Under the pieces are notes generated by a model. The model made no database searches. It was not told the DNA's origin and saw only the letters and a program-made list of their open reading frames with translations. Below are positions 10,986-52,235 of a stretch of 64,000 bases of DNA, one piece after another; within the stretch, counting starts at the first letter, position 1, and each line of letters starts with the position of its first letter. The DNA lies in assembly GCA_036012755.1 (NCBI GenBank), contig DASCPX010000009.1:1-64000 (forward strand). Reading direction: 5' to 3'. The translations under genes were made by a program, and so were the position numbers. The stretch comes from Myxococcota bacterium (GTDB lineage Bacteria; Myxococcota_A; UBA796; CAJQPC01).

Positions 10986-11025
10986 TTCACTGAACCGGCG
11001 GTTGTCCTGGTTTACTAGAGGGGCG

Positions 11026-13662: not shown

Positions 13663-13665
13663 ACT
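13660..13665 (+). promoter_or_regulatory. Putative -10 element (TAGACT) of a leaderless transcript
   Basis: 6 nt before ATG 13672, no SD; same arrangement at 15727 (TAGACT), 31094 (TAGGCT), 33227 (TAGGAT) and 54859 (TAGGTT). Confidence 0.5.
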
Positions 13666-13671
13666 GCCCCC

Positions 13672-15711: not shown

Positions 15712-15739
15712 GCCCACCCATCGCTGTAGACTTGGCTTC

Positions 15740-17779
15740 ATGCTCCTGCTGACCCTGGGCTGCGCCCTCATCACGAAGGCCGACTACGACAAGCGGATCG
15801 CGCTCGACGACTCGGGCCTGGACTGCGACGAACCGACCACCTTCTACGAGGACGCCGACGGAGACGGCTTCGGCAACGAGGAGACGCTGGAGGCCTGCGA
15901 GCAGCCCGCTGGCTACGCAGCGCAGGGCGGCGACTGTGACGACAGCACCACCGGCATCTTCCCCGGGGCCAACGAGATCTGCAACGGCGTCTCCGACGAC
16001 TGCGACCCGGAGGTCGACGAGGACCCGATCGACGGCAAGCCCCACGCCCCCGACCTCGACGAGGACGGCTATCCCGACCTCGACAGCGTCGAGTCCCACT
16101 GCGAAGGGGCCCAACCTCCGAAGTGGATCCCCGCCGACGCGGCCGAGCACGACTGCGACGACGGCGAGGCCGCGATCCACCCCGGCGCCGACGAGGTCTG
16201 CAACGACGAGGACGACGACTGCGACGATGACGTCGACGAGGATCCCGTCGACGGGACGGAGTACTGGATCGACGAGGACGGGGACGACTTCGGCGATGCA
16301 GAGGGCCTCGTCGTCGCGTGTGACCGGGGCGACCTCGCCGACAACGACCAGGACTGCGACGACGACGACGACACGGTCAACCCGGAGGGCGAAGAGGTCG
16401 AGGGCGACGGCGTCGACAACGACTGCGACGGGGGCGGCGCGCGCATCGAGGGCGTCCGCAGCGTCTCGAGTTCCGCGAGGACGCGGGTCATCGGCACGAC
16501 GAGCACTGGCTCCCTCGGCGATCGGTTTGCTGACCTCGGAGACGTCGACAGCGACGGGATGGACGACTTCCTCGTCGCCGCGCCCTACGCCGGCACGACG
16601 TTCAGCGGAGTGGTCTTCCTCGTCCACGGACCCGTCAGCAGCGGGGACCTCTCGATAGCGGAGGTCTCCTCGACCATCTTCACCCTCGGCAACGACGGCG
16701 CCGACGCCGCGCTGGGCGTGTCGCTCGCCGGCGGGGTGGACCTGCTCGGAGGCTCCTCGACGCTCGCCATGGGCGCGCCATGGGTCGGGGACTTCGTCGG
16801 CGAGGTCTACCTCGCCGACGCGGCCAGCCTCAGCGGCCTCGAGAACCCAAGCACGCACACCATACTCAAGGGGGACACCGAGTCCCGGTTCGGCGCCGCC
16901 ATCGGCGTGGGTGACGGCGACGGAGACGGCCAGGCGGACATAGCGGTCGGCGCGCCGCGCGCGGACACCTACGGGACCGACTCCGGTGTGGCCCTCGTCT
17001 TCCTCGGCCCGATCACAGAGAATCTCAGGTACACCCGCGCGGACGGGACCTACTGGGGCACGACGGAGATCGAGCTGGGCAGCGCGCTGGATGTCGCCGA
17101 CCTCGACGGAGACGGAGTCGACGACCTCGTGGTCAGCGCGACGAAAGCGGACGCCGCCGGCAAGTCGGATTGCGGAGCCGTCTACATCATCCACGGTCCG
17201 CTGACCGACACGGCGAGCGTGACCGACGCCGCGGTCCGGCTCGCCGGGGGCAATGACAGCGACCGCGCTGGCGCCTCCATCGCCGCCTTGCCGGACCACG
17301 ACGGCGACGGCCGCGGAGACATCCTCGTCGGCACCCCGGCGTTCGACGCGGGGGGAGGCATCTCGACGGGCAACGCTTCGCTCATCCTCGGGCCCTTCAC
17401 TGGGAGCTCGACCCTGGGCGCGGCCGACGTGATCATCAACGGCTCCGCTGCGAACCTCAACCTCGGCTACCGCGTCGCCTCACCCGGGGATCTCGACAGC
17501 GACGGCTTCAGCGACTTCTCCGTCGGGATCCCGGGCTCCAGCAGCTACGCCGGCATGGTCTCCACCTGGTACGGACCGGTGAGCGCGGGTGTCTACACCC
17601 AGGCCTCGGCGGACTTCGGGTACATCGGGACGAAGGCCAGTGACGGGCTCTACGTCCCGGGGCCCCACGGGGACTACCTGTCGTCTGGATCGGCGATGCT
17701 CTTCGGCAGCATCGGACTCGACAGCAACACCATCAGCAGCGTCGGCGGTTTCTATGTCGTCGAACACCCGGACCTCTAG
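15740..17779 (+). CDS. Lipoprotein with MopE-like metal-binding repeats + FG-GAP propeller (paralog 2)
   Basis: MLLLTLGC; same architecture and length (679 aa) as 13672-15711; both end EHP.L. Confidence 0.8.
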   Translation: MLLLTLGCALITKADYDKRIALDDSGLDCDEPTTFYEDADGDGFGNEETLEACEQPAGYAAQGGDCDDSTTGIFPGANEICNGVSDDCDPEVDEDPIDGKPHAPDLDEDGYPDLDSVESHCEGAQPPKWIPADAAEHDCDDGEAAIHPGADEVCNDEDDDCDDDVDEDPVDGTEYWIDEDGDDFGDAEGLVVACDRGDLADNDQDCDDDDDTVNPEGEEVEGDGVDNDCDGGGARIEGVRSVSSSARTRVIGTTSTGSLGDRFADLGDVDSDGMDDFLVAAPYAGTTFSGVVFLVHGPVSSGDLSIAEVSSTIFTLGNDGADAALGVSLAGGVDLLGGSSTLAMGAPWVGDFVGEVYLADAASLSGLENPSTHTILKGDTESRFGAAIGVGDGDGDGQADIAVGAPRADTYGTDSGVALVFLGPITENLRYTRADGTYWGTTEIELGSALDVADLDGDGVDDLVVSATKADAAGKSDCGAVYIIHGPLTDTASVTDAAVRLAGGNDSDRAGASIAALPDHDGDGRGDILVGTPAFDAGGGISTGNASLILGPFTGSSTLGAADVIINGSAANLNLGYRVASPGDLDSDGFSDFSVGIPGSSSYAGMVSTWYGPVSAGVYTQASADFGYIGTKASDGLYVPGPHGDYLSSGSAMLFGSIGLDSNTISSVGGFYVVEHPDL

Positions 17780-17812
17780 GGGTAGACTGCTTCGTCACCC
17801 TGGAGGCCTGCT

Positions 17813-20083
17813 GTGACGCTCATCGCCCTGCTCGCTTGTCAGGACAACGGCGTCACGGTCTACCACGAGCCCCCGGCGGTCAACATCTTCGAGCCCGCAG
17901 AGGGCACGCTCTACTACGAAGAGCAGACAGTCGAGTTTCGCGCCCAGGTCGAGACCATCAACGGCTCGGACGTGGACACCATCACCCACCGCTGGGTGGC
18001 CGACAGCAGCACGATCTGCCAGGAGACCCAGGTTCCGGCGGACGGCATCGCCACCTGCTCCTCCTCCTTCGACACCGCCGGCGAGTACAAGGTCACGGTC
18101 ACGGCGACGGATCCCCGCCTGGATCGGGCCACCGACACCGTCGTCATCAACATCGCCTACAACAACCCGCCGGAGGTGACGCTGCATGAGCCCCTCGACG
18201 GCGAGGTGCTGCAGTCAACCGACCTCGTCGTCTTCCTGGCCACCCTCGCGGACGCAGAGGACGAGGCGGACCAGCTGGAGGTGCAGATCAGCTCCTCCCA
18301 GGACGGCGTCCTGGCGGTCCCGGACAAGGGCATGACCTCTGGCGACTACAGCGGCAGCGCCTACCTCACCGGGGGCAGCCACCTGCTCACGGTCCAGGTC
18401 ACGGACACCGCCGGCAAGACCGGGCAGGCGACCGCGACCGTCCGCGTCAACGATCCCCCCGATCCGCCAGAGGTCGAGCTCAGCCCAGACCCGGCTGGCT
18501 CCGGAGAGAGCCTCGTCGCCACCATCACCTCGGAGGCGGTCGATCCGGAGGGGGACGCCGTCACCTACCGCTACGACTGGTACGTCGACGGAGCGGTGTA
18601 CTCGTCGGGGACCGTGCCCACCGTGGCCGCCGGCGTGACCCAGCGCAGCGAGTACTGGGAGGTCTTTGCCTACCCCTACGACGGCCAGGCCTATGGAAAC
18701 CCGGGCAGCGACGCCCTGAGCATCGGGAACACCGCCCCGAGCATCGACTCGGTGACCTTGACCCCCACGCCACTGCTGACCCTCGATGACGGCGTCTGCA
18801 CCCCGGTCGGGTGGGACGACCCGGAGGGCGACGCAGAGGCCTACCGCTACGCCTGGTACCACGGCGGAACCCTGGACAAGGGCCAGACCACCTCGACCTA
18901 CCCCTACGCCAGCTTCGTCAAGGGCGACACCCTGCGCTGCGAGGTCACCCCCTACGACGACTACGACGACGGCGACTCGGTCTCGAGCCCGACCGTGACG
19001 ATCGAGAACACGGCACCAACCCAGCCGACGGTCACGATCACGCCTGCCTCGCCAGAGCCAGAGGACACGCTGGTCTGCACGGTCAAGCCGGGCAGCAGCA
19101 CGGACGACGACGGCGACTCGATCAGCTTCAGCTACGCCTGGGTCCAGAACGGTTCGACGACCAGCTACACCAGCGCGAGCGTGTCGGACACCGCGACCGC
19201 CCACAACGACATCTGGGAGTGCCTGATCACCCCGAGCGACGGCGAGGACGACGGCACCTACGGCTCCGACACCGTCACCGTCACGGACGTGACAGCCCCC
19301 GACGCCCCGGTCATCAGCTCGATCGACGAGTACCGGAACGACGAGGACGTGGCGCTGTCCGGCACCTGCGAGGCCAGCTGCACCCTCACCTGGTACATCA
19401 GCGACTCCACCGGCTCCTGGACCGAGACGTCGACCTGCACCAGCGGCGGGGCCATCTCCCACACGACCTACGTCACCAGGGGCTACGAGACGGAGATCTA
19501 CGCCACCTGCACGGACGCGGCCTCGAACACCTCGTCGGACTCGAACACGGTCACGACAGAGGCCTGCGACCCAGAGGACACCTACGAGAACACCACCGGC
19601 TACGGCGACACCTCCAGCAACCCGGTGGACGAGTGGAGCGCGCTGGCGGACGACGGCAGCACGACCATCACCATCGAAGGCAACGTGCTGAGCTCCGCGG
19701 ACGAGGACTGGTACATCATCTCGACCACGGACGACTACTCCACGGACGTCAGCGCCGGGATCAACTACTTCAACCTGGAGATCGAGCTCACAGAGGGCTC
19801 GAGCACCTACGAGTTCCGCACCTACCAGACGAGCTACTCCAGCGGCGGCCATGTCTGCAGCACCTCGGACGCCTACACCGAGTTCTCCTGGGACCAGGAG
19901 GACTCGGGCGACGGAGCGGACCACTCCATCCCGAGCGACGACCGCTACTGCGGCGCCTCCGGGGACGCCTCCTACAACGAGTGCTCGGACTTCAGCGACG
20001 ACTGGATCGTCGAGGTGACGCGCAAGTCGACGGCGACCGCCAGCTGCCAGCACTACGAGCTCACCATCAACAACGGCCTCTGA
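17813..20083 (+). CDS. Thr/Ser/Asp-rich surface lipoprotein with tandem Ig/PKD-like repeats
   Basis: GGAGG SD; MTLIALLAC; repeated N.PP.V...P / D.(E/D)GD...Y.Y.W / C.(V/I)TP.D modules. Confidence 0.75.
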   Translation: MTLIALLACQDNGVTVYHEPPAVNIFEPAEGTLYYEEQTVEFRAQVETINGSDVDTITHRWVADSSTICQETQVPADGIATCSSSFDTAGEYKVTVTATDPRLDRATDTVVINIAYNNPPEVTLHEPLDGEVLQSTDLVVFLATLADAEDEADQLEVQISSSQDGVLAVPDKGMTSGDYSGSAYLTGGSHLLTVQVTDTAGKTGQATATVRVNDPPDPPEVELSPDPAGSGESLVATITSEAVDPEGDAVTYRYDWYVDGAVYSSGTVPTVAAGVTQRSEYWEVFAYPYDGQAYGNPGSDALSIGNTAPSIDSVTLTPTPLLTLDDGVCTPVGWDDPEGDAEAYRYAWYHGGTLDKGQTTSTYPYASFVKGDTLRCEVTPYDDYDDGDSVSSPTVTIENTAPTQPTVTITPASPEPEDTLVCTVKPGSSTDDDGDSISFSYAWVQNGSTTSYTSASVSDTATAHNDIWECLITPSDGEDDGTYGSDTVTVTDVTAPDAPVISSIDEYRNDEDVALSGTCEASCTLTWYISDSTGSWTETSTCTSGGAISHTTYVTRGYETEIYATCTDAASNTSSDSNTVTTEACDPEDTYENTTGYGDTSSNPVDEWSALADDGSTTITIEGNVLSSADEDWYIISTTDDYSTDVSAGINYFNLEIELTEGSSTYEFRTYQTSYSSGGHVCSTSDAYTEFSWDQEDSGDGADHSIPSDDRYCGASGDASYNECSDFSDDWIVEVTRKSTATASCQHYELTINNGL

Positions 20084-20084
20084 C

Positions 20085-20576
20085 ATGAAGCGACGAGATC
20101 TGCTGAAGGGCCTGGCCGTCGGAACTGCCGTCGGGTGTCTCCCCGTCTCGCTCGGGCGACCCGCAGAGGCCGCCGCCGCCGCCGTCGAGCCGGGCGATGG
20201 CCCCTGGTGGCTGCTCGCCCCACTCCGTCCGGGTCAACAGCTGGCCTTCGGATGGCACCTCGGGCTCTTCGAGTCCCTCGACCGAGGCGCGCTGATCCTG
20301 AACCTCCACAACACGGACGGGCGGAACGCCCGGGTGCACCTCTGCTACCACCAGGGCAGGCCCAAGGGTGTGGGCCACACGGAGCTCCTGGACCTGGTCC
20401 TCATGGACGGCGGCGCCGGTGCCTCGCCCACGGAGGAGTCCGTCGGCCGTGTCGTCCGTCACGTGGCCGAGATCGTTCGCAAAAACGAGCTCCGCGAGGG
20501 CGCGGAAGAGGAGCTCGCCCGGCTCATGACCCACGGCGAGCGCGTCGAGACCTTCGGCCCGGAGACCCTGGTCTGA
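20085..20576 (+). CDS. Twin-arginine (Tat) signal protein of unknown function, first gene of the Hxs block
   Basis: MKRRDLLKGLAVGTAVG (Tat consensus) followed by an Ala-rich cleavage region; stop overlaps hxsD start (TGATG at 20574-20578). Confidence 0.75.
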   Translation: MKRRDLLKGLAVGTAVGCLPVSLGRPAEAAAAAVEPGDGPWWLLAPLRPGQQLAFGWHLGLFESLDRGALILNLHNTDGRNARVHLCYHQGRPKGVGHTELLDLVLMDGGAGASPTEESVGRVVRHVAEIVRKNELREGAEEELARLMTHGERVETFGPETLV

Positions 20577-20998
20577 TGGAGCTGTCCTACGAGCTGGACG
20601 AGCGGCGCGTGCGCTTCCCCATCGACGAGTCGCTGTTTCCCCTCGACGCGATCTACGGGGCTGCCTACCTCTTCGTCGACCGCTGCTATGTCTTCCTCGA
20701 CCGCCCGACTGACCAGGTCGTGGAGGTCCAGCTGCGCACCAAGGGCGAGGCGGACGAGGCGGCGCTCGAGGCGCTCGCCGGGGAGTTCGCCAACGAGCTG
20801 CTCAACCAGGTCCTGCGCGTCCGCGTCGGCGAGTCCACCCGCAAGCTGCGGGAGTACACCCTGGCGAAGGCCTTCTTCTCCCACACGCGGACCACCAGCA
20901 TCGACGCCCTGCTCGCCGAGCTCGACGCCGAGGAGCTCGAGGACGACCCCCTGGAGATCGAGGTCCCCTGGGACAAGCCGGAGTCGCCCGGTGCCTGA
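20576..20998 (+). CDS. hxsD: His-Xaa-Ser system protein HxsD
   Basis: 140 aa: D..LFPL.AIY.AAY.F.DRCYV.L ... EFANELLNQVLR..V...T..LRE..LA.AF matches the HxsD pattern; adjacent to an HxS-repeat peptide. Confidence 0.8.
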   Translation: MELSYELDERRVRFPIDESLFPLDAIYGAAYLFVDRCYVFLDRPTDQVVEVQLRTKGEADEAALEALAGEFANELLNQVLRVRVGESTRKLREYTLAKAFFSHTRTTSIDALLAELDAEELEDDPLEIEVPWDKPESPGA

Positions 20999-21206
20999 TC
21001 TGCGCTTCCATCGCTCGCTCTACCCGGCGGAGGTCGTGGTCTCGGCCGCGGAGACCTTCAGCCAGCTCGCAACCATCACGGTCGAGGACAACGAGCACGA
21101 CGTGAAGCTGTCGATCGAGGACGTCCACCCCCACTTCGAAGGCCGGCTGGCGGACGAACTGGCCAACTACGTCCTCCAGGCCACCATCCAGGCGGAGCGG
21201 TCGTGA
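20991..21206 (+). CDS. Short HxsD-like protein (71 aa)
   Basis: GTG start overlapping the hxsD stop; LRFHRSLYP..VV..A...F ... DELANYVL parallels HxsD (LFP..AI..A / EFANELL). Confidence 0.7.
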   Translation: MPDLRFHRSLYPAEVVVSAAETFSQLATITVEDNEHDVKLSIEDVHPHFEGRLADELANYVLQATIQAERS

Positions 21207-21240
21207 GGTCGAACGCGCCCATGCATTACAGGGAAGCCTG

Positions 21241-21588
21241 ATGTCCATCAAAGACGACAAGCCCGGGCTCCCCACCATCAACAAGAGCCCCTCTGACTTC
21301 CTCCAGAAGCAGGAGGCCCAGGACGCCGCCGCCGAGGCATCCCCTTCCCTCTTGCTCCTGAACGCCGCGGACGGCCTCGATCTGGACGCGGCCCACCTCG
21401 ACCGCACCCTGGCCGGCCTGCCCGACGCCCTGGGCACGCACTGTTCCCATGGATCCCACGGCTCACACGGTTCGCATGGCTCACACGGCTCACACGGCTC
21501 GCACGGAAGCCATGGCTCCCACGGATCGCACGGCAGTCACGGCAGTCATGGCTCCCACGGATCGCATGGCAGCCACGGGCAGTGGTGA
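21241..21588 (+). CDS. hxsA: His-Xaa-Ser repeat RiPP-like precursor (HxsA-type): 66-aa leader + HCS-(HGS)14-HGQW
   Basis: Direct translation; AGGGA SD-like motif upstream; repeat encoded by highly varied synonymous codons; lies between HxsD genes and radical SAM genes. Confidence 0.85.
   Translation: MSIKDDKPGLPTINKSPSDFLQKQEAQDAAAEASPSLLLLNAADGLDLDAAHLDRTLAGLPDALGTHCSHGSHGSHGSHGSHGSHGSHGSHGSHGSHGSHGSHGSHGSHGSHGQW
21439..21585 (+). repeat. 9-bp period coding repeat (His-Gly-Ser codons)
   Basis: CAY-GGN-(TCN/AGY) x14 after CAC-TGT-TCC, ending CAC GGG CAG TGG. Confidence 0.95.
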
Positions 21589-22540
21589 CTCGCTCGTCCT
21601 GACGGTCACGCGGCGGTGCGACCTCCGCTGCAGCTACTGCCCGACGGCGAAAGAGGGCTGGCCCTCGCTGAGCATCGGCCAGGTCAACCGGGCCATCGAT
21701 CTCTTCGTCGAGGGCGGCGGCGGTGACCTCAAGCTCTTCGGTGGCGAACCCCTGCTCGTTCCGGAGGTGGTGGAGGCGGTGCTCGACCGGACAGAGGACG
21801 AGCCTGCGATCTCGCGGGTCTACCTCTCGACCAACGGGCTCGGCCTGGACGAGGGCTGGCTGGCTCGGCGACGCGACAAGCTCATCCTGACGATCTCGAT
21901 GGATGGGCGCCCAGAGGACCACCGGCGTTTCCGACGCCCGGCTCGCGAGGGTGTCCGAGATGCCTACGACCACGTGATCTCCCTGCTCCCGGCGCTGTTG
22001 CGGACCCCCCGGGTCGTGCTCACGATGACGATTCCACCTGCCTCGGCGCATAGCGCAGTCGAGAACTTCGACCACCTCCGCGGCCTGGGCTTTCGCCGCT
22101 TCAACCTGCTGCCCGGCTACTACCTGCCCTGGCGACCACAGCAGCTCGAAGCGCTCCGAGAAGGCCTCGACGGCATCGCGACACGCTTCCGGGTCGCCTG
22201 GTCGGAGGGCTCGCACCTCTACCTGCGCAACCTCTTCACCTGGGCGCCGACACCCTTCTTCAACACGGGCATGGTGGTCGACGCCGACGGCTCGATCCAC
22301 CCGAGCAACATCGGGCTGTCGCTGGATCACCTCTGCGCCGAGACCCGCGCAGGCACGCTGGAGGCGCCCCCCTCGGCGGCCGAGCTCGACGACAAAGCCG
22401 GGACCATCAGCGCCTTGCTGGAGCGAGAGGTGGACGAGCGCGTCCTGGCCTCGACCAGGGCGGTCGACGCGGAGCTGACCCGCATGGTGCGCGGCCTCTA
22501 CCCGGCCTGGGCAGCATGGAAGAAGGCGAGGAGCTCGTGA
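21566..22540 (+). CDS. Radical SAM enzyme 1 (HxsB/anaerobic-sulfatase-maturase-like core, SPASM cysteines lost)
   Basis: TRRCDLRCSYC, FGGEPLL, STNG, ISMDG; 'DADGSIHPS' where SPASM proteins have DG..YPC. Start uncertain (last in-frame ATG 21566; frame open from 21449). Confidence 0.85.
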   Translation: MAATGSGDSLVLTVTRRCDLRCSYCPTAKEGWPSLSIGQVNRAIDLFVEGGGGDLKLFGGEPLLVPEVVEAVLDRTEDEPAISRVYLSTNGLGLDEGWLARRRDKLILTISMDGRPEDHRRFRRPAREGVRDAYDHVISLLPALLRTPRVVLTMTIPPASAHSAVENFDHLRGLGFRRFNLLPGYYLPWRPQQLEALREGLDGIATRFRVAWSEGSHLYLRNLFTWAPTPFFNTGMVVDADGSIHPSNIGLSLDHLCAETRAGTLEAPPSAAELDDKAGTISALLEREVDERVLASTRAVDAELTRMVRGLYPAWAAWKKARSS

Positions 22541-23481
22541 GCTGGGTCGGACCCGACGGGCGAGTAATGAGGCGCCTGGAGCTGCACCTGACCTACACCT
22601 GTCCCCAGGCCTGCGTGTTCTGCTCAGAGGACCACCGGATGCAGCGTTTCCGGAAGTTCCCCGTGACCTGGGGACGGGTCGCGGCGACCCTCCGGGAGCA
22701 CGCCGCCCATGGGGTCGACCACCTCCACCTCACAGGCGGCGAGCCGACCATCCACACCCGCTTGCTGGACGTGCTCGCCCTGGCGAGGAAGCTGGGCATG
22801 CGGACCTCGATCGGCACCATCGGCGCACGGCTGGCCCGCGAGGACTTCGCCGCCTTGGCCTTTCCGCTGCTGGATACAGCCCTCTTCAGCCTCCACGGTC
22901 CCACCGCGGAGCTCCACGACAGGCTGACCTCGAAGGCCGGGAGCTTCGAGAGGCAGCTTCGCGCGATGGAGCTGGCGGAGCGACACCCCACCCTTCGCTG
23001 CGCGAACACGGTGGTCTGCAAGGACAACATCGAGCGGCTCCCGGAGACCGTGGACTTCCTCGATCGAGCAGGTGTTTCCTTGATCGTCGTGTCGAACACC
23101 ACCCCCGAGGGCGCGGCCCTGGATCGCTACGAGGAGCTGGCTGTCACCCTCGAGGTCCTCGCCGAGGTCCTGCCCAAGGTGCGCACCGAGCGGGCCACGC
23201 TGCGCTTCTTCGGGGTGCCGATGTGTGTCCTGTCAGAGGACCAGCGGATGCTCTCGAACGACCTGCACTGGGACCCGCGGGTGACCGTGGAGTGGACCGC
23301 CGAGCCCGACAAGGTGGTCTACACCGGTCAGTTCAACTGGACCCCGGCCCGGAAGCGCAGCCACGTCGAGGAGTGCGCCCAGTGCAGCCTGCGGGGGGTC
23401 TGCATGGGGGTCTACACCCACTACGCCGAGCTCTGGCCGACCACCGCGCTCTGCGCTCGGCCGGCTATCGTGGCGGAGTGA
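22537..23481 (+). CDS. Radical SAM enzyme 2 (HxsC-like)
   Basis: CPQACVFC, TGGEPT, SLHG...HD.LT...GSF, GVPMC, CAQCSLRGVCMG; GTGA overlap with previous stop. Confidence 0.88.
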   Translation: MSWVGPDGRVMRRLELHLTYTCPQACVFCSEDHRMQRFRKFPVTWGRVAATLREHAAHGVDHLHLTGGEPTIHTRLLDVLALARKLGMRTSIGTIGARLAREDFAALAFPLLDTALFSLHGPTAELHDRLTSKAGSFERQLRAMELAERHPTLRCANTVVCKDNIERLPETVDFLDRAGVSLIVVSNTTPEGAALDRYEELAVTLEVLAEVLPKVRTERATLRFFGVPMCVLSEDQRMLSNDLHWDPRVTVEWTAEPDKVVYTGQFNWTPARKRSHVEECAQCSLRGVCMGVYTHYAELWPTTALCARPAIVAE

Positions 23482-24467
23482 CCCGCGACACGCGCCGCAA
23501 CATCGAAGTGAACGTCGGCAAGGCGTGCAACAACCGCTGCGTCTTCTGCCTCGATGGCCTCCCCAAGCGCGAGGACCGCTCCTTCCTACCGCTGGCGGAC
23601 ATGAAGGCGGAGATCACCCGCTGGTACGGCGAGGGCCACCGCAGCCTGGGCTTCCTCGGCGGCGAGCCGAGCACCTACCCCGGGCTCACGGAGTCCATCG
23701 CTCATGCCCGGGATCTCGGCTTCACCCGCATCGCCATCGCCACCAACGGGACCAGGCTTCGCAAGGCGGCCTTCGTCGATCGCCTCATCGACGCGGGCCT
23801 GACCCGGGTGACGGTCTCCTCCCACGGCCACACAGCAGAGCTGGAGGACCGGCTCACGCGAGTCCCGGGCAACTTCCTGAAGAAGCAGCAGGCCCTGCGC
23901 ATCCTGGTGGACCGCCGCGACGCTGGCCGCCTGCCGGACAACGTGAGCGTGAACATCGTGCTCAACGGCTGGAACTACCGAGTCCTGCCGAAGATGCTCC
24001 GCTACTTCTTCGGCCTTGGCGTGGACGACGTGCGCGCCAACTTCATCCGCAGCGAGGGCCACGCCGACGAGGACTGGTCGCTCACCCCGACCTACCAGCA
24101 GACGGTGCCGGTGCTCATGAAGGCCCTCGCGCTCAACGAGTTCCACTTCCACAAGTCATTCACCTTCGGCGGCTTCCCCCTCTGCGTGCTGCCCATGGAG
24201 TTCCTCGCGAACACGCGCATGGTGAGGAAGTACCTGGGCGAGTACCGGGACCTCGACACCGACTGCTCGGTCCGCGGCGAGGGCGACCACGGCATCGCAG
24301 AGGTCGAGGACGGCCGGGCCCGCTTCAACTGGCAGGATCGCAAGCGCTTCGATCTCAAGCACCAGCTGGAGCGCTGCGGTCACTGCCGCTACGCCGGGGT
24401 CTGCGAGGGCGTCTGGAAGATGTACCTCACCATCCACGGCGACGAGGAGTTCTCGCCCGTGCCGTGA
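23478..24467 (+). CDS. Radical SAM enzyme 3 (HxsC-like)
   Basis: CNNRCVFC, LGGEPS, ATNG, GFPLC, CGHCRYAGVCEG; GTGA overlap. Confidence 0.88.
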   Translation: MTRDTRRNIEVNVGKACNNRCVFCLDGLPKREDRSFLPLADMKAEITRWYGEGHRSLGFLGGEPSTYPGLTESIAHARDLGFTRIAIATNGTRLRKAAFVDRLIDAGLTRVTVSSHGHTAELEDRLTRVPGNFLKKQQALRILVDRRDAGRLPDNVSVNIVLNGWNYRVLPKMLRYFFGLGVDDVRANFIRSEGHADEDWSLTPTYQQTVPVLMKALALNEFHFHKSFTFGGFPLCVLPMEFLANTRMVRKYLGEYRDLDTDCSVRGEGDHGIAEVEDGRARFNWQDRKRFDLKHQLERCGHCRYAGVCEGVWKMYLTIHGDEEFSPVP

Positions 24468-25565: not shown

Positions 25566-26818
25566 GTCCCGTCGAGCTCGCCGTGGCCGCGAAGGCGGCG
25601 GCTCTTGGCCTGCAGCGAAGCAGCACCGTGGCTCGCGCCGCAGCCCTGGAGCGCATGGCCACCGCCCTGATCGAGCGACAAGACGAGATCCTCGCGGAGA
25701 ACGAGCGGGACTTGGCCGTCGCCGGCGACCTGGAGCCAGCGCTACGCAGCCGGCTGAAGCTGAGCCCGGCCAAGCTCGCGACCCTGGCGGAGGGCATCCG
25801 AGCGATCGCGGCAGCGGAGGAGCCCCTCGGTCGGGTCCTGCGCGCAACAGAGCTGGCAGAGGGCCTCGAGCTCCAGCAGGTCACCGCCCCCATCGGCGTG
25901 CTCCTCGTCATCTTCGAGTCCCGCCCGGACGTGCTGCCGCAGGTCGCCGCGCTGGCGGTGAAGAGCGGCAACGGCCTGCTCTTGAAGGGCGGCTCGGAGG
26001 CTCTGCACAGCAACCGCTGCCTCCACCGGATCGTGACGGAGGCCCTGGACCTCGGGCCTGTCATCGGCTTGGTCGAGACCCGCGCCGACATCGCCGATCT
26101 GCTCGCTCTGGACGATGTGATCGACCTGGTCATTCCTCGGGGATCGAAGGCCCTGGTCCGCCACATCCAGCAGAACACGCGCATCCCGGTGCTCGGCCAC
26201 GCCGACGGTGTCTGCCACGTCTACGTCGACGACGCCGCGGACCTCGGGAGCGCCCTGGAGGTCGTCCTCGACGCCAAGTGCGACTACCCGGCGGCCTGCA
26301 ACGCGATGGAGACCCTGCTGCTGCACGAGGCCCTCGATCCCTCCCCCTTCGTCGAGGCCCTCGAAGCAGCCGGGGTCGTCGTCCACCGCCAGCCCGCCGA
26401 CTGGCACACGGAGTACGGCAGCCTCGAGTGCAGCCTGGCCATCGTCTCGGGCATCGACGAGGCCATCGACCACATCCACGCTCATGGCAGCGGCCACACA
26501 GAGGCCATCCTCACAGCGGACCCCATCGCCGCGCAGCGCTTCCTCGACGGGGTCGACAGCGCCTGTGTGTTCCACAACGCCTCCACCCGCTTCGCGGACG
26601 GCTACCGCTTCGGCCTGGGCGCCGAGGTCGGCATCTCGACCGCCCGCATCCACGCCCGGGGCCCCGTCGGCCTCGACGGCTTGTTGACCACGCGGTGGAA
26701 GCTACGGGGCCAGGGCGACACCGCCAGCGCGTTCTCACGCGGGGAGCGCGTGTTCACGCACCGGGCGCTCGACCGGTCGTCCCAGGTCCTGGGTGCGCAT
26801 CGACGCGAAGGCGACTGA
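25562..26818 (+). CDS. proA: Gamma-glutamyl phosphate reductase
   Basis: PIGV..IFESRP, KSGN..LLKGGSEA..SN, IPRG, GVCHVYVD, ACNAMETLL, GSGHTE.I, NASTRFADG..FG.GAEVGIST..IHARGPVG. Confidence 0.95.
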   Translation: MSPVELAVAAKAAALGLQRSSTVARAAALERMATALIERQDEILAENERDLAVAGDLEPALRSRLKLSPAKLATLAEGIRAIAAAEEPLGRVLRATELAEGLELQQVTAPIGVLLVIFESRPDVLPQVAALAVKSGNGLLLKGGSEALHSNRCLHRIVTEALDLGPVIGLVETRADIADLLALDDVIDLVIPRGSKALVRHIQQNTRIPVLGHADGVCHVYVDDAADLGSALEVVLDAKCDYPAACNAMETLLLHEALDPSPFVEALEAAGVVVHRQPADWHTEYGSLECSLAIVSGIDEAIDHIHAHGSGHTEAILTADPIAAQRFLDGVDSACVFHNASTRFADGYRFGLGAEVGISTARIHARGPVGLDGLLTTRWKLRGQGDTASAFSRGERVFTHRALDRSSQVLGAHRREGD

Positions 26819-26872
26819 CGGACGCGCGGGCACCTGGTGCCCCTCCAGGGCAGGGCCCGAATGCGACGGGAT

Positions 26873-27021
26873 GTTGCGTATCGGCCTCGGTTCTCCGGAA
26901 CCCCCGGAGATGTGCAACAGAACGTTGCGTATCGGCCTCGGTTCTCCGGAACCCCCGGATATGTGCAACAGAACGTTGCGTATCGGCCTGGGTTCTCCGG
27001 AACCCCCGGAGATGTGCAACA
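26873..27021. repeat. Tandem 51-bp palindromic repeat, about 3 copies (REP-like)
   Basis: Unit GTTGCGTATCGGCCTCGGTTCTCCGGAACCCCCGGAGATGTGCAACAGAAC starts at 26873, 26924 and 26975; contains TCTCCGG/CCGGAGA and GTTGC/GCAAC inverted pairs; no spacers. Confidence 0.9.
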
Positions 27022-27179
27022 AGACGTGCTTGCACGCCGCGGACGAGAGAGGACCAGTCCTCAGCCAAGTGTCCGATCATATCGCCGGAGACCGGATCGT
27101 AGACGCCCCCAGATCGGTCGAAGACCACGTCTTCGGCGTTGCCGACGTTGGCTCGTTCCTTCGCCGCATTCAGCCTCCT

Positions 27180-27282
27180 GCCCGCCGACTGGCACACGGA
27201 GTACGGCAGCCTCGAGGCAGCCTGGCCATCGTCTCGGGCATCGATGAGGCCATCGACCACATCCACGCCCACGGCAGCGGCC
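27180..27282 (+). pseudogene. Frameshifted internal fragment copy of proA (duplicate of 26392-26495)
   Basis: 103 vs 104 bp; one T deleted (GAGTGC>GAGGC) and three third-position changes (GAC>GAT, GCT>GCC, CAT>CAC). Confidence 0.9.
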
Positions 27283-31106: not shown

Positions 31107-32339
31107 GTGGAAGCGAGCCACCGGACCAAGGGCCTGTTGCGGCTGACGATGGCGTGCAACGAGCGCTGTCCCTTCTGCAACGTGCCCGCCGAGGACCACC
31201 CCGGTCACCCGACCCCCGACGAGGACCTCGAGGCGGCACTCCAGGGATTGGCCAGCCGCGGCGAGCGGACGGCGACCATCTCCGGAGGGGAGCCGACCAT
31301 CCTCCGGAAGCGACTGGTGGCCCTCGTCGCCAGGGCGCGGGCCCTGGGCCTGGACTTCGTCGAGCTCCAGACCAACGCCGTGCTGCTGACGCCGGACTAC
31401 GTCGAGGAGCTGCACGAGGCAGGGCTCACCTCCGCCTTCGTGAGCCTCCTCGCGGACAACGAAGTCGACCACGACGCACTCGCCGGACTCGGGGGCGCCT
31501 TCGAGCGCTGCCTCGCCGGCATCGACGCCCTCCTCGACGACCGCATCCCGGTCACGCTCAACCCGGTCTTCACGGCGCGGACCCAGGGGCTCCCACCTCG
31601 CTACATCGCCTTCGTCAGCGAGCGCTTCCCGGGCATCGCCCACATCTCGATGAGCGCCGTGCAACCCCACGGGCGAGCCGCCGACGGTGCCATGCTGCCC
31701 GACTACGCCGTGTTGGGTCCGGCGATCACAGAGGCGCGGGAGATCGCATCAGAGCGCGGGATCGAGCTCTTGAACCCCTACTGCGGGCTGCCGCTGTGCG
31801 CAGGCTGGGCGGACGACCTGGAGCACTGCGTGGAGAGCCTGGACCCCTCGACGGGACCCGGACTGGACAACGCCGGGAACAAGGCCTTCGGCCCCCCTTG
31901 CCGTCGCTGCGCCCTGCGGCCGGCCTGCGGAGGCGCTTGGCACGCCTACTGGACGGAGCGCGGAGGCAGCGGACTCCAGGCTCCCGTCCAGAAGCACCCA
32001 CCCTGGGACGGAGCACCGACGACAGAGGCTGCGACGGTCTGGGGCCACGACCTCCAGGATGACGCCACGGACCTCGCCCTCACCTGGAACCCGGACGATC
32101 TGCCCACCTTGAAGCGCATACGACAGTTCATCTCCGGCCAGGCCGGACGCCCCGGTCGCCAGCGGGTCCAGGTCGCCCTGGGCATACGGGTCGCCGGCCT
32201 GGGAGAGGCCGCGGTGCTGGAGCTGGTGCGCATGGCCAACGCCATCGGCGTGACGCAGGTTGGGCTCCTCGGGGGGCACGCCGAGCTGGCCAGGAAGCTG
32301 GAGTCGATCGGTGGACTCCCGGTCGAGGCGCGGCCATGA
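31107..32339 (+). CDS. Radical SAM enzyme 4 (HxsC-like, with C-terminal extension)
   Basis: CNERCPFC, SGGEPT, LQTNA, CGLPLC, CRRCALRPACGG. Confidence 0.88.
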   Translation: MEASHRTKGLLRLTMACNERCPFCNVPAEDHPGHPTPDEDLEAALQGLASRGERTATISGGEPTILRKRLVALVARARALGLDFVELQTNAVLLTPDYVEELHEAGLTSAFVSLLADNEVDHDALAGLGGAFERCLAGIDALLDDRIPVTLNPVFTARTQGLPPRYIAFVSERFPGIAHISMSAVQPHGRAADGAMLPDYAVLGPAITEAREIASERGIELLNPYCGLPLCAGWADDLEHCVESLDPSTGPGLDNAGNKAFGPPCRRCALRPACGGAWHAYWTERGGSGLQAPVQKHPPWDGAPTTEAATVWGHDLQDDATDLALTWNPDDLPTLKRIRQFISGQAGRPGRQRVQVALGIRVAGLGEAAVLELVRMANAIGVTQVGLLGGHAELARKLESIGGLPVEARP

Positions 32340-33229
32340 AGAACCTCGTCGCAGCCTTCTCGACTCGCTTCCGCGGACACACCGACCGCGGCTGGGACCT
32401 TCCCCATCCGCCCCTGGAGGCGCTGGTCCAGCTCGCGGACGAAGACGACGTCGTGCTCGGCGGCGGCGAGCCCACCCTCAGACCGGACCTGCCTCGCCTG
32501 CTGGCAGCCATCCCGACGGCTCGCCTGCACACCGACGGCCTGGCCTTCGCAGAGGGCCTCCAGGGGCTGGAGCTCCAGCGCGTTCGCATCGACTTCCACT
32601 GCGCGCGACAGGACGCACACGACTGGCTGGTCGGCCAGAAGGGAGCTGCCCGATCAGCGGTCCGAGCCATCCGCACCTGCCTGGAGGCGGGGCTCGACGT
32701 GGAGGTCGAGGTGCTGCTGACGCGCCCGACACTGCCCCACATCGAGGAGACGCTGGCTGTGCTGGAGTCACTGGGCGTGCAGCAGACGCGCCTGCGCCCG
32801 ATCGAGCGCCGTGGACCAGCGGCGGAGCACTACCTCGCGCTGGCGCCCCCGCTGACCGGTCTCCGACGACCCATCGTGCAGGGCGAGCTCTGGCACGCCC
32901 CAGGGGACCACCCCCTGGCCCAGCCTCTGGTGGCGAGCGACTCCAGCGGCCTCGGCAGGCGCCGCAGCATGCGCTCGGGAGGGGCCTCCATCGACCTGCG
33001 CGCTGCCCCTACACGCGCCCTCCGACAGCGCATGGTGAGCCTGGCCGAGCAGCATGACAGCCTGGATGTCCTGGTCGACCTGGAGCGACCCGAGTCCCCG
33101 GAGTTGATCACGGACTGCCTGCGGCTGTTCGCGACCGTCGACGCGGTGGCCACCGGGTCCTCCGAGCACTGGTCGAAGGCCGAGCTGCGCCACTTGAGGC
33201 GGCTCACGACCCTGACAGAGGCGAAGTAG
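32336..33229 (+). CDS. Degenerate radical-SAM-fold protein lacking CxxxCxxC
   Basis: Retains LGGGEPTLRPDL, LHTDG, HD.LVG..GA....RAI but has no N-terminal Cys triad; ATGA overlap with rSAM4. Confidence 0.7.
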   Translation: MKNLVAAFSTRFRGHTDRGWDLPHPPLEALVQLADEDDVVLGGGEPTLRPDLPRLLAAIPTARLHTDGLAFAEGLQGLELQRVRIDFHCARQDAHDWLVGQKGAARSAVRAIRTCLEAGLDVEVEVLLTRPTLPHIEETLAVLESLGVQQTRLRPIERRGPAAEHYLALAPPLTGLRRPIVQGELWHAPGDHPLAQPLVASDSSGLGRRRSMRSGGASIDLRAAPTRALRQRMVSLAEQHDSLDVLVDLERPESPELITDCLRLFATVDAVATGSSEHWSKAELRHLRRLTTLTEAK

Positions 33230-33237
33230 GATCCGCC

Positions 33238-34986
33238 ATGGACTCCCGCGCCCGGACCCTCGAGCACGAGCGCATCGCGAGCAGGCCGAAGCACTGGGTG
33301 CGGCTGACCACGGCCTGCAACAACAAGTGCCTGTTCTGCCTGGACATGGACACCCCTCGCAACGTCTACCTCGCGACAGAGGACATCGAGGCCGACATCC
33401 GCCGCGGGCACGTCGAGCTCGGCGCCGCAAAGGTCATCCTCAGCGGCGGCGAAGCCAGCGTCCACCCGCTGTTCTCACGCTTCATCCGCTTCGCCCTCGA
33501 GATCGGCTACGAGCGCGTCCAGACCGTGACCAACGGGCTCCGCTACGGCGACCGCCGGTTCTTCGACGAGGTCATGGACGCTGGCCTCGGCGAGATCACC
33601 TTCAGCCTGCATGGCCACGACGCCGCGCTCCACGACCGCCTCGTACAGACCCCCGGCAGCTTCGAGCTGCTCATGAAGGGGCTGCTGCGGGCGGTCCGAC
33701 ATCGCGACCGGCACGGCTGGCCCATCGTGAACATCGACGTGGTCATCAACTCGCAGAACGTCGGGGTCCTCGACCGCATCGTCGAGCTCGGCGTGAGCGT
33801 CGGCGTCAAGGAGTACGACCTGCTGCACGTCATCCCGCAGGCAGAGGCCTACAGGAATCGCGAGCAGCTCTTCTACGAGGTGCGGGAGCACCTGCCCGTC
33901 CTCCAGAAGGTCTTCAGGCTCAACCGCCGGGACGACTTCCACATCTGGACGAACCGCTTCCCGGTGGCCTACCTCGAAGGCCTCGAGGACCTCATCCAGG
34001 ATCCCCACAAGATGATCGACGAGGTCAGGGGCCGGCGCTTCCATGTCCGGCGCTACCTCGACTCGGGGACGCCGCTGGACTGCCGGCAGCCAGAGCGCTG
34101 CGAGCACTGCTTCATCGAGCCCTTCTGCACGACCATGGAGCGGACCATCGAGGCCCAGAACGGACACCGAGTAGACCTGTGGCACGTCGGTGGAGGGTCC
34201 TGGAGCGGTCCCCTGCCCTTCGGGGCCTGCCGTCTTGGTGTGATCCGTGAACGATATGAGGATCTTCCGACCGATTACCCGCTGCTGGTCGAGACCTCTA
34301 CGACGGAGCTGCCCGAACCTGGGGACGTCATCCTCGTCGCGAAGACCGCAGAGCAGTGTGCAGCCTGGCTCGGCCACGACATGGTCGTCCGCCTGAACCC
34401 CTCTACGGCACCGTGGCTGCTGGCGAACGTGAACGCTCTGCATGACCTACGCATCCACCAGCCGACCTGGACGAAGACGGAGGAGGCGGTCGCGGGTGAC
34501 CTGCGCGACCCCGCGGGCTTCTTCCGCCAGCTGAAGCGCCGTGTGCCCGTGAGCGGCCTGCCCGCTTGCCTGGCACCCGGGATGGAGCTGGTCCGAGTGC
34601 CGAGACGACTCGACGCGGCGCTCTTCCACGAAGGCCGCCTCCACTGGGAGGCCCTGGCGGCCTTCCACGTCGAGCACCACTACAGGGCGCGCTCGGTGCG
34701 CTGTGACGACTGCCCGGTGTCGGAGCTCTGCGAGGGCATCTCCATCCACATGATCCGAGCCCAGGGTCTGGGGCTCTGCCAGCCGCTGGAGGGTGACCAC
34801 GCCCGCGACGCGCGCGAGCAGCTCAGCGCACTCCCCAAGCGCATCGCCCAGGGCCTGCCGCCGCAGCCGGTGGCAGCCAGCCTGCCGGGTCACCCGCCAC
34901 CATCGGAGCCTCCGGAGGATCCCCTGCGCCAGCCCAACGGGCTCCGTCGCTCGGACTTCCTGCGAGGCGGGCGCGAGGTCGTCTGA
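33238..34986 (+). CDS. Radical SAM enzyme 6 (582 aa, two C-terminal Cys modules)
   Basis: CNNKCLFC, SGGEAS, VTNG, SLHG...HD.LV..PGSF; C.....CEHCFIEPFC, then GLPAC ... CDDCPVSELCEG. Confidence 0.88.
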   Translation: MDSRARTLEHERIASRPKHWVRLTTACNNKCLFCLDMDTPRNVYLATEDIEADIRRGHVELGAAKVILSGGEASVHPLFSRFIRFALEIGYERVQTVTNGLRYGDRRFFDEVMDAGLGEITFSLHGHDAALHDRLVQTPGSFELLMKGLLRAVRHRDRHGWPIVNIDVVINSQNVGVLDRIVELGVSVGVKEYDLLHVIPQAEAYRNREQLFYEVREHLPVLQKVFRLNRRDDFHIWTNRFPVAYLEGLEDLIQDPHKMIDEVRGRRFHVRRYLDSGTPLDCRQPERCEHCFIEPFCTTMERTIEAQNGHRVDLWHVGGGSWSGPLPFGACRLGVIRERYEDLPTDYPLLVETSTTELPEPGDVILVAKTAEQCAAWLGHDMVVRLNPSTAPWLLANVNALHDLRIHQPTWTKTEEAVAGDLRDPAGFFRQLKRRVPVSGLPACLAPGMELVRVPRRLDAALFHEGRLHWEALAAFHVEHHYRARSVRCDDCPVSELCEGISIHMIRAQGLGLCQPLEGDHARDAREQLSALPKRIAQGLPPQPVAASLPGHPPPSEPPEDPLRQPNGLRRSDFLRGGREVV

Positions 34987-36038
34987 TGGCAAACCTGGGC
35001 TACCTCCAGCTCACCCGCAACTGCCTCCAGTCGTGCCGCTTCTGCTCCAACCCACCGACCGGGATGGGGCTCGACGAAGATCAGATGCGTGGTCTGATCG
35101 ACGAGCTCGCCGACCGGGACTACGACGGCGTGATCCTCACGGGAGGAGAGCCGAGCCTCTCGCCGCTGCTGTTCTTGGCCCTGGCCCATGCCGCCGAACG
35201 CGGCCTCCACAGCCGCATGATCACCAACGGCCAGAGCCTGGCAGACGCCGAGTTCTTCCGGCGCTGCGTGGACGCAGGCCTGTCCCACGTCCACTTGAGC
35301 CTCCACAGCTACAGAGCCGAGGTCCACGACTTCATCACCCGCTACCCGGGCAGCTACGAGGCCATCGTCCGGTGCCTGGAACTCGTGCCGGAGATGGGCA
35401 TCACAGCTGACATCAACTGCGTCATCAACGCCTACAACTCCGACCACCTCCACCACAGCGCGATCTGGATCACCGAGCACTTCCCGTGGGTGCGCCACTT
35501 CGTCTGGAACAACATGGATCCCGATGGCAACCGGGCAGAGGACAACCCCGACTGCATCCCCAGGCACTACGAGTTCAGCCTCAGCCTGGAGCTCGCCATG
35601 AAGCACCTCCACGCCACTGGCCGGACCTTCCGCGCTGAGCGGGTTCCGCTGTGCTCGATGCCGGCGTTTCCCTGGGCCTCGACCGAGACACGCAAGATCG
35701 TCAAGGAGGAGGAGCGCTGCGTCCGCTTCCTCGACGCCAAGGGCTTCGTCCAGCAGCTGGAGTTCCTCCACGGCAAGGGCGAGCCCTGCGATGCCTGTCG
35801 CTGGGACGGGATCTGCGCGGGCATGTACTCGATGGCGCGCTCCTTCGACGAGCGGGAGCTCTCGCCGGTCTTCGAGGACATCGAGCCCACCGTGCGGGCC
35901 GTGCTCGGCCGCGAGCCTGAGCCCGAGCTCCTGGAGCGACTCCAGGCCCGTCGAGGCAGGCGATCGCTGACAGAGCAGCCCTCTGAGCGACAGCGCGCGG
36001 AGGCGCTCGCCCGGCCCTTCCCTCCGGGGGCGGCTTGA
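34986..36038 (+). CDS. Radical SAM enzyme 7 (HxsC-like)
   Basis: CLQSCRFC, TGGEPS, ITNG, SLHS...HD.IT..PGSY, RVPLC, CDACRWDGICAG; TGATG overlap. Confidence 0.88.
   Translation: MANLGYLQLTRNCLQSCRFCSNPPTGMGLDEDQMRGLIDELADRDYDGVILTGGEPSLSPLLFLALAHAAERGLHSRMITNGQSLADAEFFRRCVDAGLSHVHLSLHSYRAEVHDFITRYPGSYEAIVRCLELVPEMGITADINCVINAYNSDHLHHSAIWITEHFPWVRHFVWNNMDPDGNRAEDNPDCIPRHYEFSLSLELAMKHLHATGRTFRAERVPLCSMPAFPWASTETRKIVKEEERCVRFLDAKGFVQQLEFLHGKGEPCDACRWDGICAGMYSMARSFDERELSPVFEDIEPTVRAVLGREPEPELLERLQARRGRRSLTEQPSERQRAEALARPFPPGAA

Positions 36039-52103: not shown

Positions 52104-52235
<132 letters not shown>

Follow-up and report, generated by a model that had tools for sequence, protein, structure and literature searches.

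In the HXS system of E. coli, processing needs HxsB, HxsC and HxsD, a change of +8 Da falls on SHRSS, and His and Ser are essential, as set out in the main text of PMC13128918. The product is periplasmic and blocks the entry of phage DNA (PMC13128918). The motif His-Xaa-Ser was reported by Haft and Basu to be a putative substrate of HxsB and HxsC (PMC9062424), and in the His triceptides links run from C2 of His1 to the C-beta of X3 (PMC11499958). Reconstitution of the +8 Da change on HxsA of E. coli did not succeed.

The locus described here lies in the window, the whole stretch of 64,000 nucleotides that was analysed (Myxococcota contig DASCPX010000009.1). Judged by its profile match, its His-Xaa-Ser ORF is HxsA4, a member of a family already catalogued at NCBIfam, and it has the features of that family, an N-terminal leader and C-terminal His-Xaa-Ser repeats. 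The operon runs in the order Tat-signal protein, hxsD, hxsD-like, hxsA4 and three radical SAM genes. The features of the region are:

17813..20083, + strand: Ig-like lipoprotein-type gene immediately upstream, position conserved in the family
20085..20576, + strand: 163-aa protein with a Tat-type signal (PF10518, weak) and no named family, co-occurring with hxsA4
20576..20998, + strand: hxsD (TIGR03976, 62.9 bits, cut-off 50)
20991..21206, + strand: hxsD-like (NF038315, 61.8 bits, cut-off 41)
21241..21588, + strand: hxsA4, 115-aa His-Xaa-Ser repeat precursor (NF038313, 101.8 bits, cut-off 55)
21241..21438, + strand: leader, 66 aa, acidic (11 D/E, 5 K/R), without signal peptide
21439..21585, + strand: core HCS-(HGS)14-HGQW, as read from the ORF
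21511..21566, + strand: paired 20-nt block (exact repeat), copies offset by 36 nt, left over from a four-unit duplication
21566..22540, + strand: R1, radical SAM with CxxxCxxC, weakly PapB/HxsB-like (start inferred; alternative 21548)
22567..23481, + strand: R2, HxsC-like radical SAM with C-terminal CxxCx5C (HxsC4 80.8 and HxsC 73.3 bits, both below cut-off)
23478..24467, + strand: R3, HxsC-like radical SAM (HxsC4 144.5 bits, below the cut-off of 500)
31107..36038, + strand: second cluster, four HxsC-like radical SAM genes R4-R7

The ORF reads as the earlier note had it, with 15 consecutive HxS triplets, 16 His, one Cys in the first triplet and a terminal Trp. The 49 residues of the core include no Lys or Arg, no other charged residue and no Pro. 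The leader carries the family motif LPxLxRxPxDFLQxxE, and its hydropathy maximum over the first 30 residues is -0.48. A purine-rich, ribosome-binding-like site stands ahead of the gene (21230-21234), and a promoter scan found no promoter. When all six frames are scanned, hxsA4 holds the sole run of at least two HxS triplets in the window. Four further marine runs yielded contigs that match the array wherever they cover it, with zero differences, and a single 804-nt contig, from a run of the same study as the possible source samples, covers the whole array (20967-21770) with no mismatch and bridges the hxsD-like/hxsA4 junction.

Across the phylum, NF038313 is over its cut-off in 124 of 401 genomes. 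Within the order it is over the cut-off in 63 of 154 genomes, and 73 of the 154 carry an HxsA4 match. HxsB is present in 68 of these 73 (72 HxsB genomes in total among the 154), an R6 orthologue also in 68 (77 in total) and the Tat-signal protein in 67 (74 in total), and kinship among the genomes inflates every cross-genome P value. HxsA4 is the only leader-bearing HxS repeat in the source genome, its three other matches being of a different type. Homologues with SEEGKI-type leaders and mixed HGS/HAS/HSS cores (P0002-P0121) are labelled Omnitrophota, Elusimicrobiales, Actinobacteria and a Diapherotrites archaeon, and the family therefore extends past this phylum. Distant homologues in other phyla mix G, A, S, T and N at X and keep H and S; uniform Gly at X is, as far as the compared sequences go, a trait of this phylum's branch. 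Literature searches on HxsA4, HxsC4, NF038313 and HGS repeats found no relevant paper, and PMC10288494 and PMC13635244 contain no passage on Hxs. The HxsA4 gene itself is catalogued and common; the type-4 system occurs in about a third of the sampled phylum genomes, with some ten radical SAM enzymes per precursor, and its product and function are undescribed.

That the core is a selected peptide repeat and not a recent slippage microsatellite, as the earlier note proposed, is borne out by its orthologues. Among 114 distinct pattern matches, with loci taken mostly best HMM score first, 103 cores were kept; eight were cut by a contig or locus end, and one each was dropped for an N run, as spurious and for a degenerate tail (L075). 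In this set, whose best-score choice favours clean HGS and which leaves the decaying arrays L075 and L118 outside the count, 1654 of 1681 interior units are HGS, 25 are HAS, one is QGS and one is HSS. Six more loci, one of them L118 with several substitutions, escaped the pattern because their core does not start with HCS or contains Ns. Gly to Ala is the only common substitution, and 10 of the 25 HAS stand at the second triplet. Extra alleles across the family number 446 synonymous vs 24 non-synonymous, and the same ORF is found at orthologous loci. In a genome of the same genus, the core is identical at 49/49 residues with 20 of 46 H/G/S codons different (13 of 40 in R3), and the leader is identical at 44/66 and R3 at 263/327. 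His number ranges from 11 to 50 per core with a mode of 16 (31/103), and the cores end in HGQW (53) or HGSW (50). In family f19, 16 His are found in 15 of 17 arrays, and same-position unit identity is at the shuffled level (2.85 vs 2.83, 14 arrays). Invariant HGS, same-genus identity and the fixed length in f19 together indicate that the sequence and, in some families, the length are under selection. A protein unit of two triplets, which parity of the His number would betray, was rejected, both parities being found within families. Very long HGS arrays of 32-50 His occur at L059, L062, L068, L049, L035 and L132, and family f2 has HAS units at conserved positions (11, 25).

Besides HxsA4, HxsB and HxsD, three clusters of the source genome encode R1, eight HxsC-like proteins, of which one lacks CxxxCxxC, and a flavoprotein resembling a halogenase. 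HxsC and HxsC4 are among the best matches of the eight paralogues, every one below cut-off (best HxsC 97 of 267.9, best HxsC4 190.8 of 500). The cyclophane-synthase models score R1 at 27.4 of 445 (YhhB) and 25 of 370 (FxsB), and PADLOC returned nothing beyond generic viperin radical SAM matches. The R2 ORF is open from 22516. In the second cluster, R5 (32336-33229) is radical SAM-like without CxxxCxxC and overlaps the R4 stop, and relatives keep it at 40-45% identity; homologues of R6 and R7 sit within the hxs operon at two other loci, L092 and L093. R1 and R3 group with their same-genus copies (moderate supports of 94 and 88/87), and their trees broadly follow taxonomy. All frames of the partner genes are intact, with GC3 of 0.87-0.96.

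HxsB of the source genome (473.9 bits vs a cut-off of 370) is found on another contig, C198, rather than in the operon. Of 15 genomes of the same order that have wide flanks, 12 place hxsB between hxsD-like and hxsA4, a position from which it is absent in the window. The C198 cassette (80685-85580) consists of hxsB, an HxsC-like gene, a flavoprotein of the Trp-halogenase family (PF04820, 133.8 bits) and a further HxsC-like gene. Mis-binning of this contig was considered and rejected, its composition being typical (rank 20 of 62). Its HxsB shares only 56% identity with the HxsB of the same-genus operon and is not grouped with that copy in the tree. A second HxsB is present in several relatives, so C198 likely carries such a paralogue, which may act on another substrate; its action on the HxsA4 of the window is putative. 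The flavoprotein is accessory, being found in 35 of the 154 order genomes, 30 of these with HxsA4, and its best match lies in another family (63%, vs 57% in the same genus). Nearly confined to type-4 genomes, it could act on the terminal Trp of HxsA4.

The Tat-signal protein gives a confident structure model, and its fold found no ESM Atlas match of at least 0.9, no TM above 0.36, no Foldseek match with E<=0.001 and a best Z of 5.2 in VIA, so that it is assigned to no fold. The HxsD model has a pLDDT of 84 and most resembles small alpha/beta folds (RPB11, Pcc1, DCoH and aIF2-alpha, with 73 residues aligned, rmsd 2.7 and Z up to 7.6), with no PqqD-like chain among the top 50 structure matches listed. 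Several other features were seen in passing. At L094 (13593-15428), an HxsC-like radical SAM protein near hxsD carries a fused class I methyltransferase domain; this fusion is a lead on the extra carbon of HxS chemistry. Facing the hxsB cassette, on the minus strand of C198 (85581-87206), is a radical SAM protein whose C-terminal tail has several (T/A/Y)EM(A/V/I)P-like repeats, perhaps the fused substrate of another system. Four large lipoprotein-like genes run into the hxs operon (11002-20083), two of them 679-aa paralogues, which we take to bear integrin/FG-GAP-like repeats. At 26862-27282, three 51-nt direct repeats (89-92% identical) are followed by a copy of about 110 nt, 95% identical, of the proA 3' region (26386-26495); this stretch lies upstream of two genes whose codon fit is weaker and is likely the scar of an insertion, situated between the two radical SAM clusters. 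A 52-nt repeat of 1.9 copies at 52104-52235 is followed by a perfect (CGTCAT)5 microsatellite.

A model of HxsA4 maturation can be proposed on the observed basis of family membership, operon, co-occurrence and purifying selection. HxsA4, a leader-plus-core peptide invariant as protein and freely diverged as DNA, would be taken as substrate by the HxsB/HxsC-like radical SAM enzymes and the HxsD proteins. Each His ring would be cross-linked to the Ser of its own triplet, two residues further along, to yield a polycyclic and rigid peptide, and the matured peptide would be exported and then act, likely, in the cell envelope. We consider this reading moderately probable, its parts unequally so. By analogy, given homology to HXS and co-occurrence, HxsA4 is very probably a substrate of the neighbouring enzymes. 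One His-to-Ser ring per triplet, with a small X needed for a tight ring, could equally prove right or wrong: it is modelled on the triceptides and on the essential His and Ser of HXS. Against the reading as a whole count the paralogues below the HxsC and HxsC4 cut-offs, none a triceptide-synthase member by HMM. The HXS modification moreover adds 8 Da (+C, -4H) on a single motif (PMC13128918), where a plain ring would mean -2 Da for every triplet. We suggest only tentatively that paralogues and the flavin halogenase-like enzyme would add further tailoring at the Cys and terminal Trp, and export helped by the Tat-signal partner, replacing the missing signal peptide, is a comparably tentative idea. 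An HXS-like envelope barrier against phage is, by analogy, the likeliest single role and still a doubtful one; the lack of Lys/Arg in the core and of an anchor domain, the housekeeping neighbours and the R1 and R3 trees close to taxonomy count against it. The fullest version is distinctly unlikely as a whole: a rigid polymer of some 15 contiguous His-to-Ser rings, tailored by a flavin halogenase and some ten radical SAM enzymes, a dedicated Tat-exported partner that carries it out of the cytoplasm, a free-peptide HXS barrier to phage entry, DNA turnover in two-triplet steps with the peptide length fixed, and a start codon for the following maturase hidden within the last His codons.

The junction with that next gene bears on the DNA of the repeat. 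The frame of R1 is the +1 frame of the HGS repeat, in which the repeat cannot hold a stop. Between the hxsA4 stop and the conserved first strand of R1 there is no ATG, GTG or TTG, and the nearest are the CAT-G ATGs at 21566 and 21548; the ATG at 21566 lies in the His codon of triplet 15, and GGA precedes it at 21559-21561. R1 adjoins hxsA4 at 43 loci. At the 17 without another start, a CAT falls in the last six units in 17/17 (11.3 expected by shuffling), vs 18/26 at the other R1 loci (P=0.014), with independence limited because 11 of the 17 are from one family (four families in all). The Gly codon before the start CAT is GGA in 8/20 vs 11/194 elsewhere, and at the same-genus locus R1 has a GTG of its own downstream, CAT being absent altogether. 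A His CAT near the 3' end of hxsA4 likely supplies the ATG of the overlapping R1 gene, in a call that considers the standard ATG, GTG and TTG and leaves room for non-standard starts. This overlap in turn likely accounts for two rare codons in the window core. A start codon inside an HGS repeat is unreported in the literature searched.

The codons of the core are mixed despite the GC3 bias, just as the earlier note had remarked: both His codons (CAC 11, CAT 5), all four Gly codons (GGC 9, GGA 4, GGT 1, GGG 1) and five of the six Ser codons (TCC 4, TCG 4, TCA 3, AGC 2, AGT 2; TCT 0) are used, and GC3 is 0.67 in the core vs 0.92 in the leader. The accompanying statement that only one 18-nt block recurs needs amending, since the block does recur, as an exact 20 nt (21511-21530 and 21547-21566), and two single 9-nt units recur too. 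Tandem Repeats Finder detects a 36-nt period (2.9 copies, 85% match, 21475-21578), so traces of duplication persist. Compared with random HGS units drawn from genome codon usage (2638 training ORFs), the core has 10 distinct units of 14 (9.1 +/- 1.5 under the null, P=0.39) and a longest exact repeat of 20 (19.7 under the null); its pairwise unit difference is marginally high (P=0.04), and its GC3 is 27/42 vs 35.7 expected, with a nominal P=0.0005 that is overstated because duplicated units are not independent. The window copy is an extreme of the family, second of 103 in distinct units and first in pairwise difference, with a distinct-unit fraction of 0.71 vs an orthologue median of 0.38. Perfect tandems of at least 36 nt occur in 75/103 orthologues and of at least 54 nt in 44/103, the longest reaching 126 nt. 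Under a local codon model, 47 of 60 orthologues are below expected diversity (22 with z<-2, one with z>2), and GC3 is low (z<-2) in 20 of them; in 6 it is high. These tandems and the below-null diversity indicate that slippage acts on the arrays, and that scrambling is not a family design.

The arrays also alternate. Relative to expectation, identical units are found at 0.64, 1.73, 0.67, 1.49, 0.58 and 1.36 for lags 1 to 6, an ABAB pattern that is family-wide (lag 2 above 1 in 23/27 families, lag 1 below 1 in 18/27), with the caveat that short-read assembly may bias which arrays are recovered. Identical neighbouring units number 221 vs 343.5 expected, and no array is made of a single unit throughout. 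ABABAB runs are present in 31/103 arrays with 15 different pairs (2.7 when shuffled), AAAAAA in 6 (2.2 when shuffled). In toy simulations, even-step (18/36-nt) turnover fits lags 1-6 best, and a penalty on identical neighbours fits less well. Other peptide repeats of the source genome, comprising only 16 arrays of 2-6 aa units and so a weak control, show no ABAB excess. Folding of native vs unit-shuffled core mRNA in 97 arrays gives no consistent effect (mean z -1.0, 40 weaker than shuffled; z +1.1 for the window core). The codon mix is likely the sum of silent saturation, leftover even-step duplications and overlap with the R1 start, and the depletion of identical neighbours could reflect instability of perfect 9-nt runs. 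ABAB alternation of repeat units is unreported in the literature searched, and together with the in-repeat start codon it makes a small addition to what is known on the evolution of selected peptide repeats.

Two other explanations of the codons have to be weighed. The earlier note had suggested that the DNA is diversified to limit recombination or slippage, and the strong form of this idea has selection actively diversifying codons to suppress both. The family-wide depletion of identical neighbours and the absence of single-unit arrays stand in its favour, as do the low GC3 and extreme divergence of the window copy, the part of the pattern that a simulated penalty on identical neighbours reproduces, and one database protein (P0012) whose array has collapsed to two triplets, in vivo or in assembly. 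Yet the diversity of the window core is that of the codon-usage null, nearly all orthologues that depart strongly from theirs lie below it, long perfect tandems persist, and even-step slippage without such selection fits the lags better, which leaves active diversification quite improbable. Alternatively, the operon could be decaying after the loss of its own hxsB, the AT-richer codons marking relaxed expression. The displaced hxsB, the divergence of the remaining HxsB and the low core GC3 would suit such decay; the zero amino-acid changes in the core, the intact partner frames with high GC3 and the GC3 deficit shared by a third of the orthologues (20/60) make it very improbable.

The peptide itself admits two further readings. 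In one, the product, matured or unmodified, binds Cu, Ni or Zn, the 16 imidazoles being the purpose of the repeat and the enzymes serving to pre-organise the peptide. An otherwise uncharged core so rich in His, and a His number held near 16, are consistent with this, and the operon lipoprotein at L092 and L093 bears putative metal-binding motifs (PF11617). Such motifs are common in myxobacterial lipoproteins, which weakens the point. RiPP metallophores do exist (PMC11626156), but in the operon of the window neither a TonB-dependent receptor nor an ABC transporter or a metal regulator could be recognised, and the Ser of position 3 is no less invariant than the His, a constancy that binding by itself would not require; metal binding as the purpose is rather unlikely, and the remaining probability falls to roles other than this one and the envelope barrier. 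In the other, a collagen-like (Gly-Ser-His)n chain would be trimeric or packed as polyglycine II, with Gly structural. Gly at every third residue, the Pfam Collagen match and the restriction of common substitutions to Gly to Ala, often at the second triplet, agree with it. The core, though, lacks Pro and charged pairs, the Collagen match is compositional, and homologues in other phyla vary X and keep H and S, so that we regard this as highly improbable. The cross-linked, exported substrate of the HxsB/HxsC-like enzymes remains the reading that we prefer, and a short, soluble-looking, uniform (HGS)14 substrate would make the stoichiometry of modification easy to read by mass spectrometry.

The locus can finally be set beside the described systems. 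With bacterial collagen-like proteins, the HxsA4 core shares Gly-X-Y periodicity (PF01391, 34.9 bits vs 27.2). With the triceptides HaaA/HaaB and HtkA/HtkB (PMC11499958) it shares a three-residue aromatic-X-X motif, His first, and radical SAM maturases; it differs in having 15 contiguous motifs, and the cross-link here is a predicted one. E. coli HXS (HxsABCD; PMC13128918) likewise has HxS repeats, HxsB, HxsD and HxsC-like enzymes that bear a second Cys motif at the C-terminus. However, its operon is the four-gene hxsD-hxsB-hxsC-hxsA, with 99.7% in Pseudomonadota, and the order in the window is different; the main text of PMC13128918 makes no mention of Myxo-, HGS or HxsA4, and its supplements may list type-4 loci. 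E. coli HxsA has 214 aa, a signal peptide, a domain for peptidoglycan binding and five basic repeats (PMC13128918), whereas HxsA4, at 115 aa, is a free peptide whose 15 repeats are uncharged, accompanied by some ten enzymes. Hydropathy revealed no hydrophobic stretch, and no twin-Arg was seen, in its first 35 residues; no peptidoglycan-binding domain was found, Collagen being the only Pfam match and the protein ending at the core. Since it lacks signal peptide, anchor domain and basic residues, HxsA4 falls outside the present definition of the HXS defence system, but it may act in a similar way. From the NCBIfam type-4 set (NF038313, TIGR03976, NF038315, TIGR03978, NF038332) this system departs in having hxsB outside the operon, no enzyme over the HxsC4 cut-off, and the additional HxsC-like proteins, R1 and flavoprotein of the source genome. 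Its precursor, HxsD, HxsD-like and HxsB are all over the curated cut-offs, and here as there a leader is followed by an HxS core that ends in Trp.
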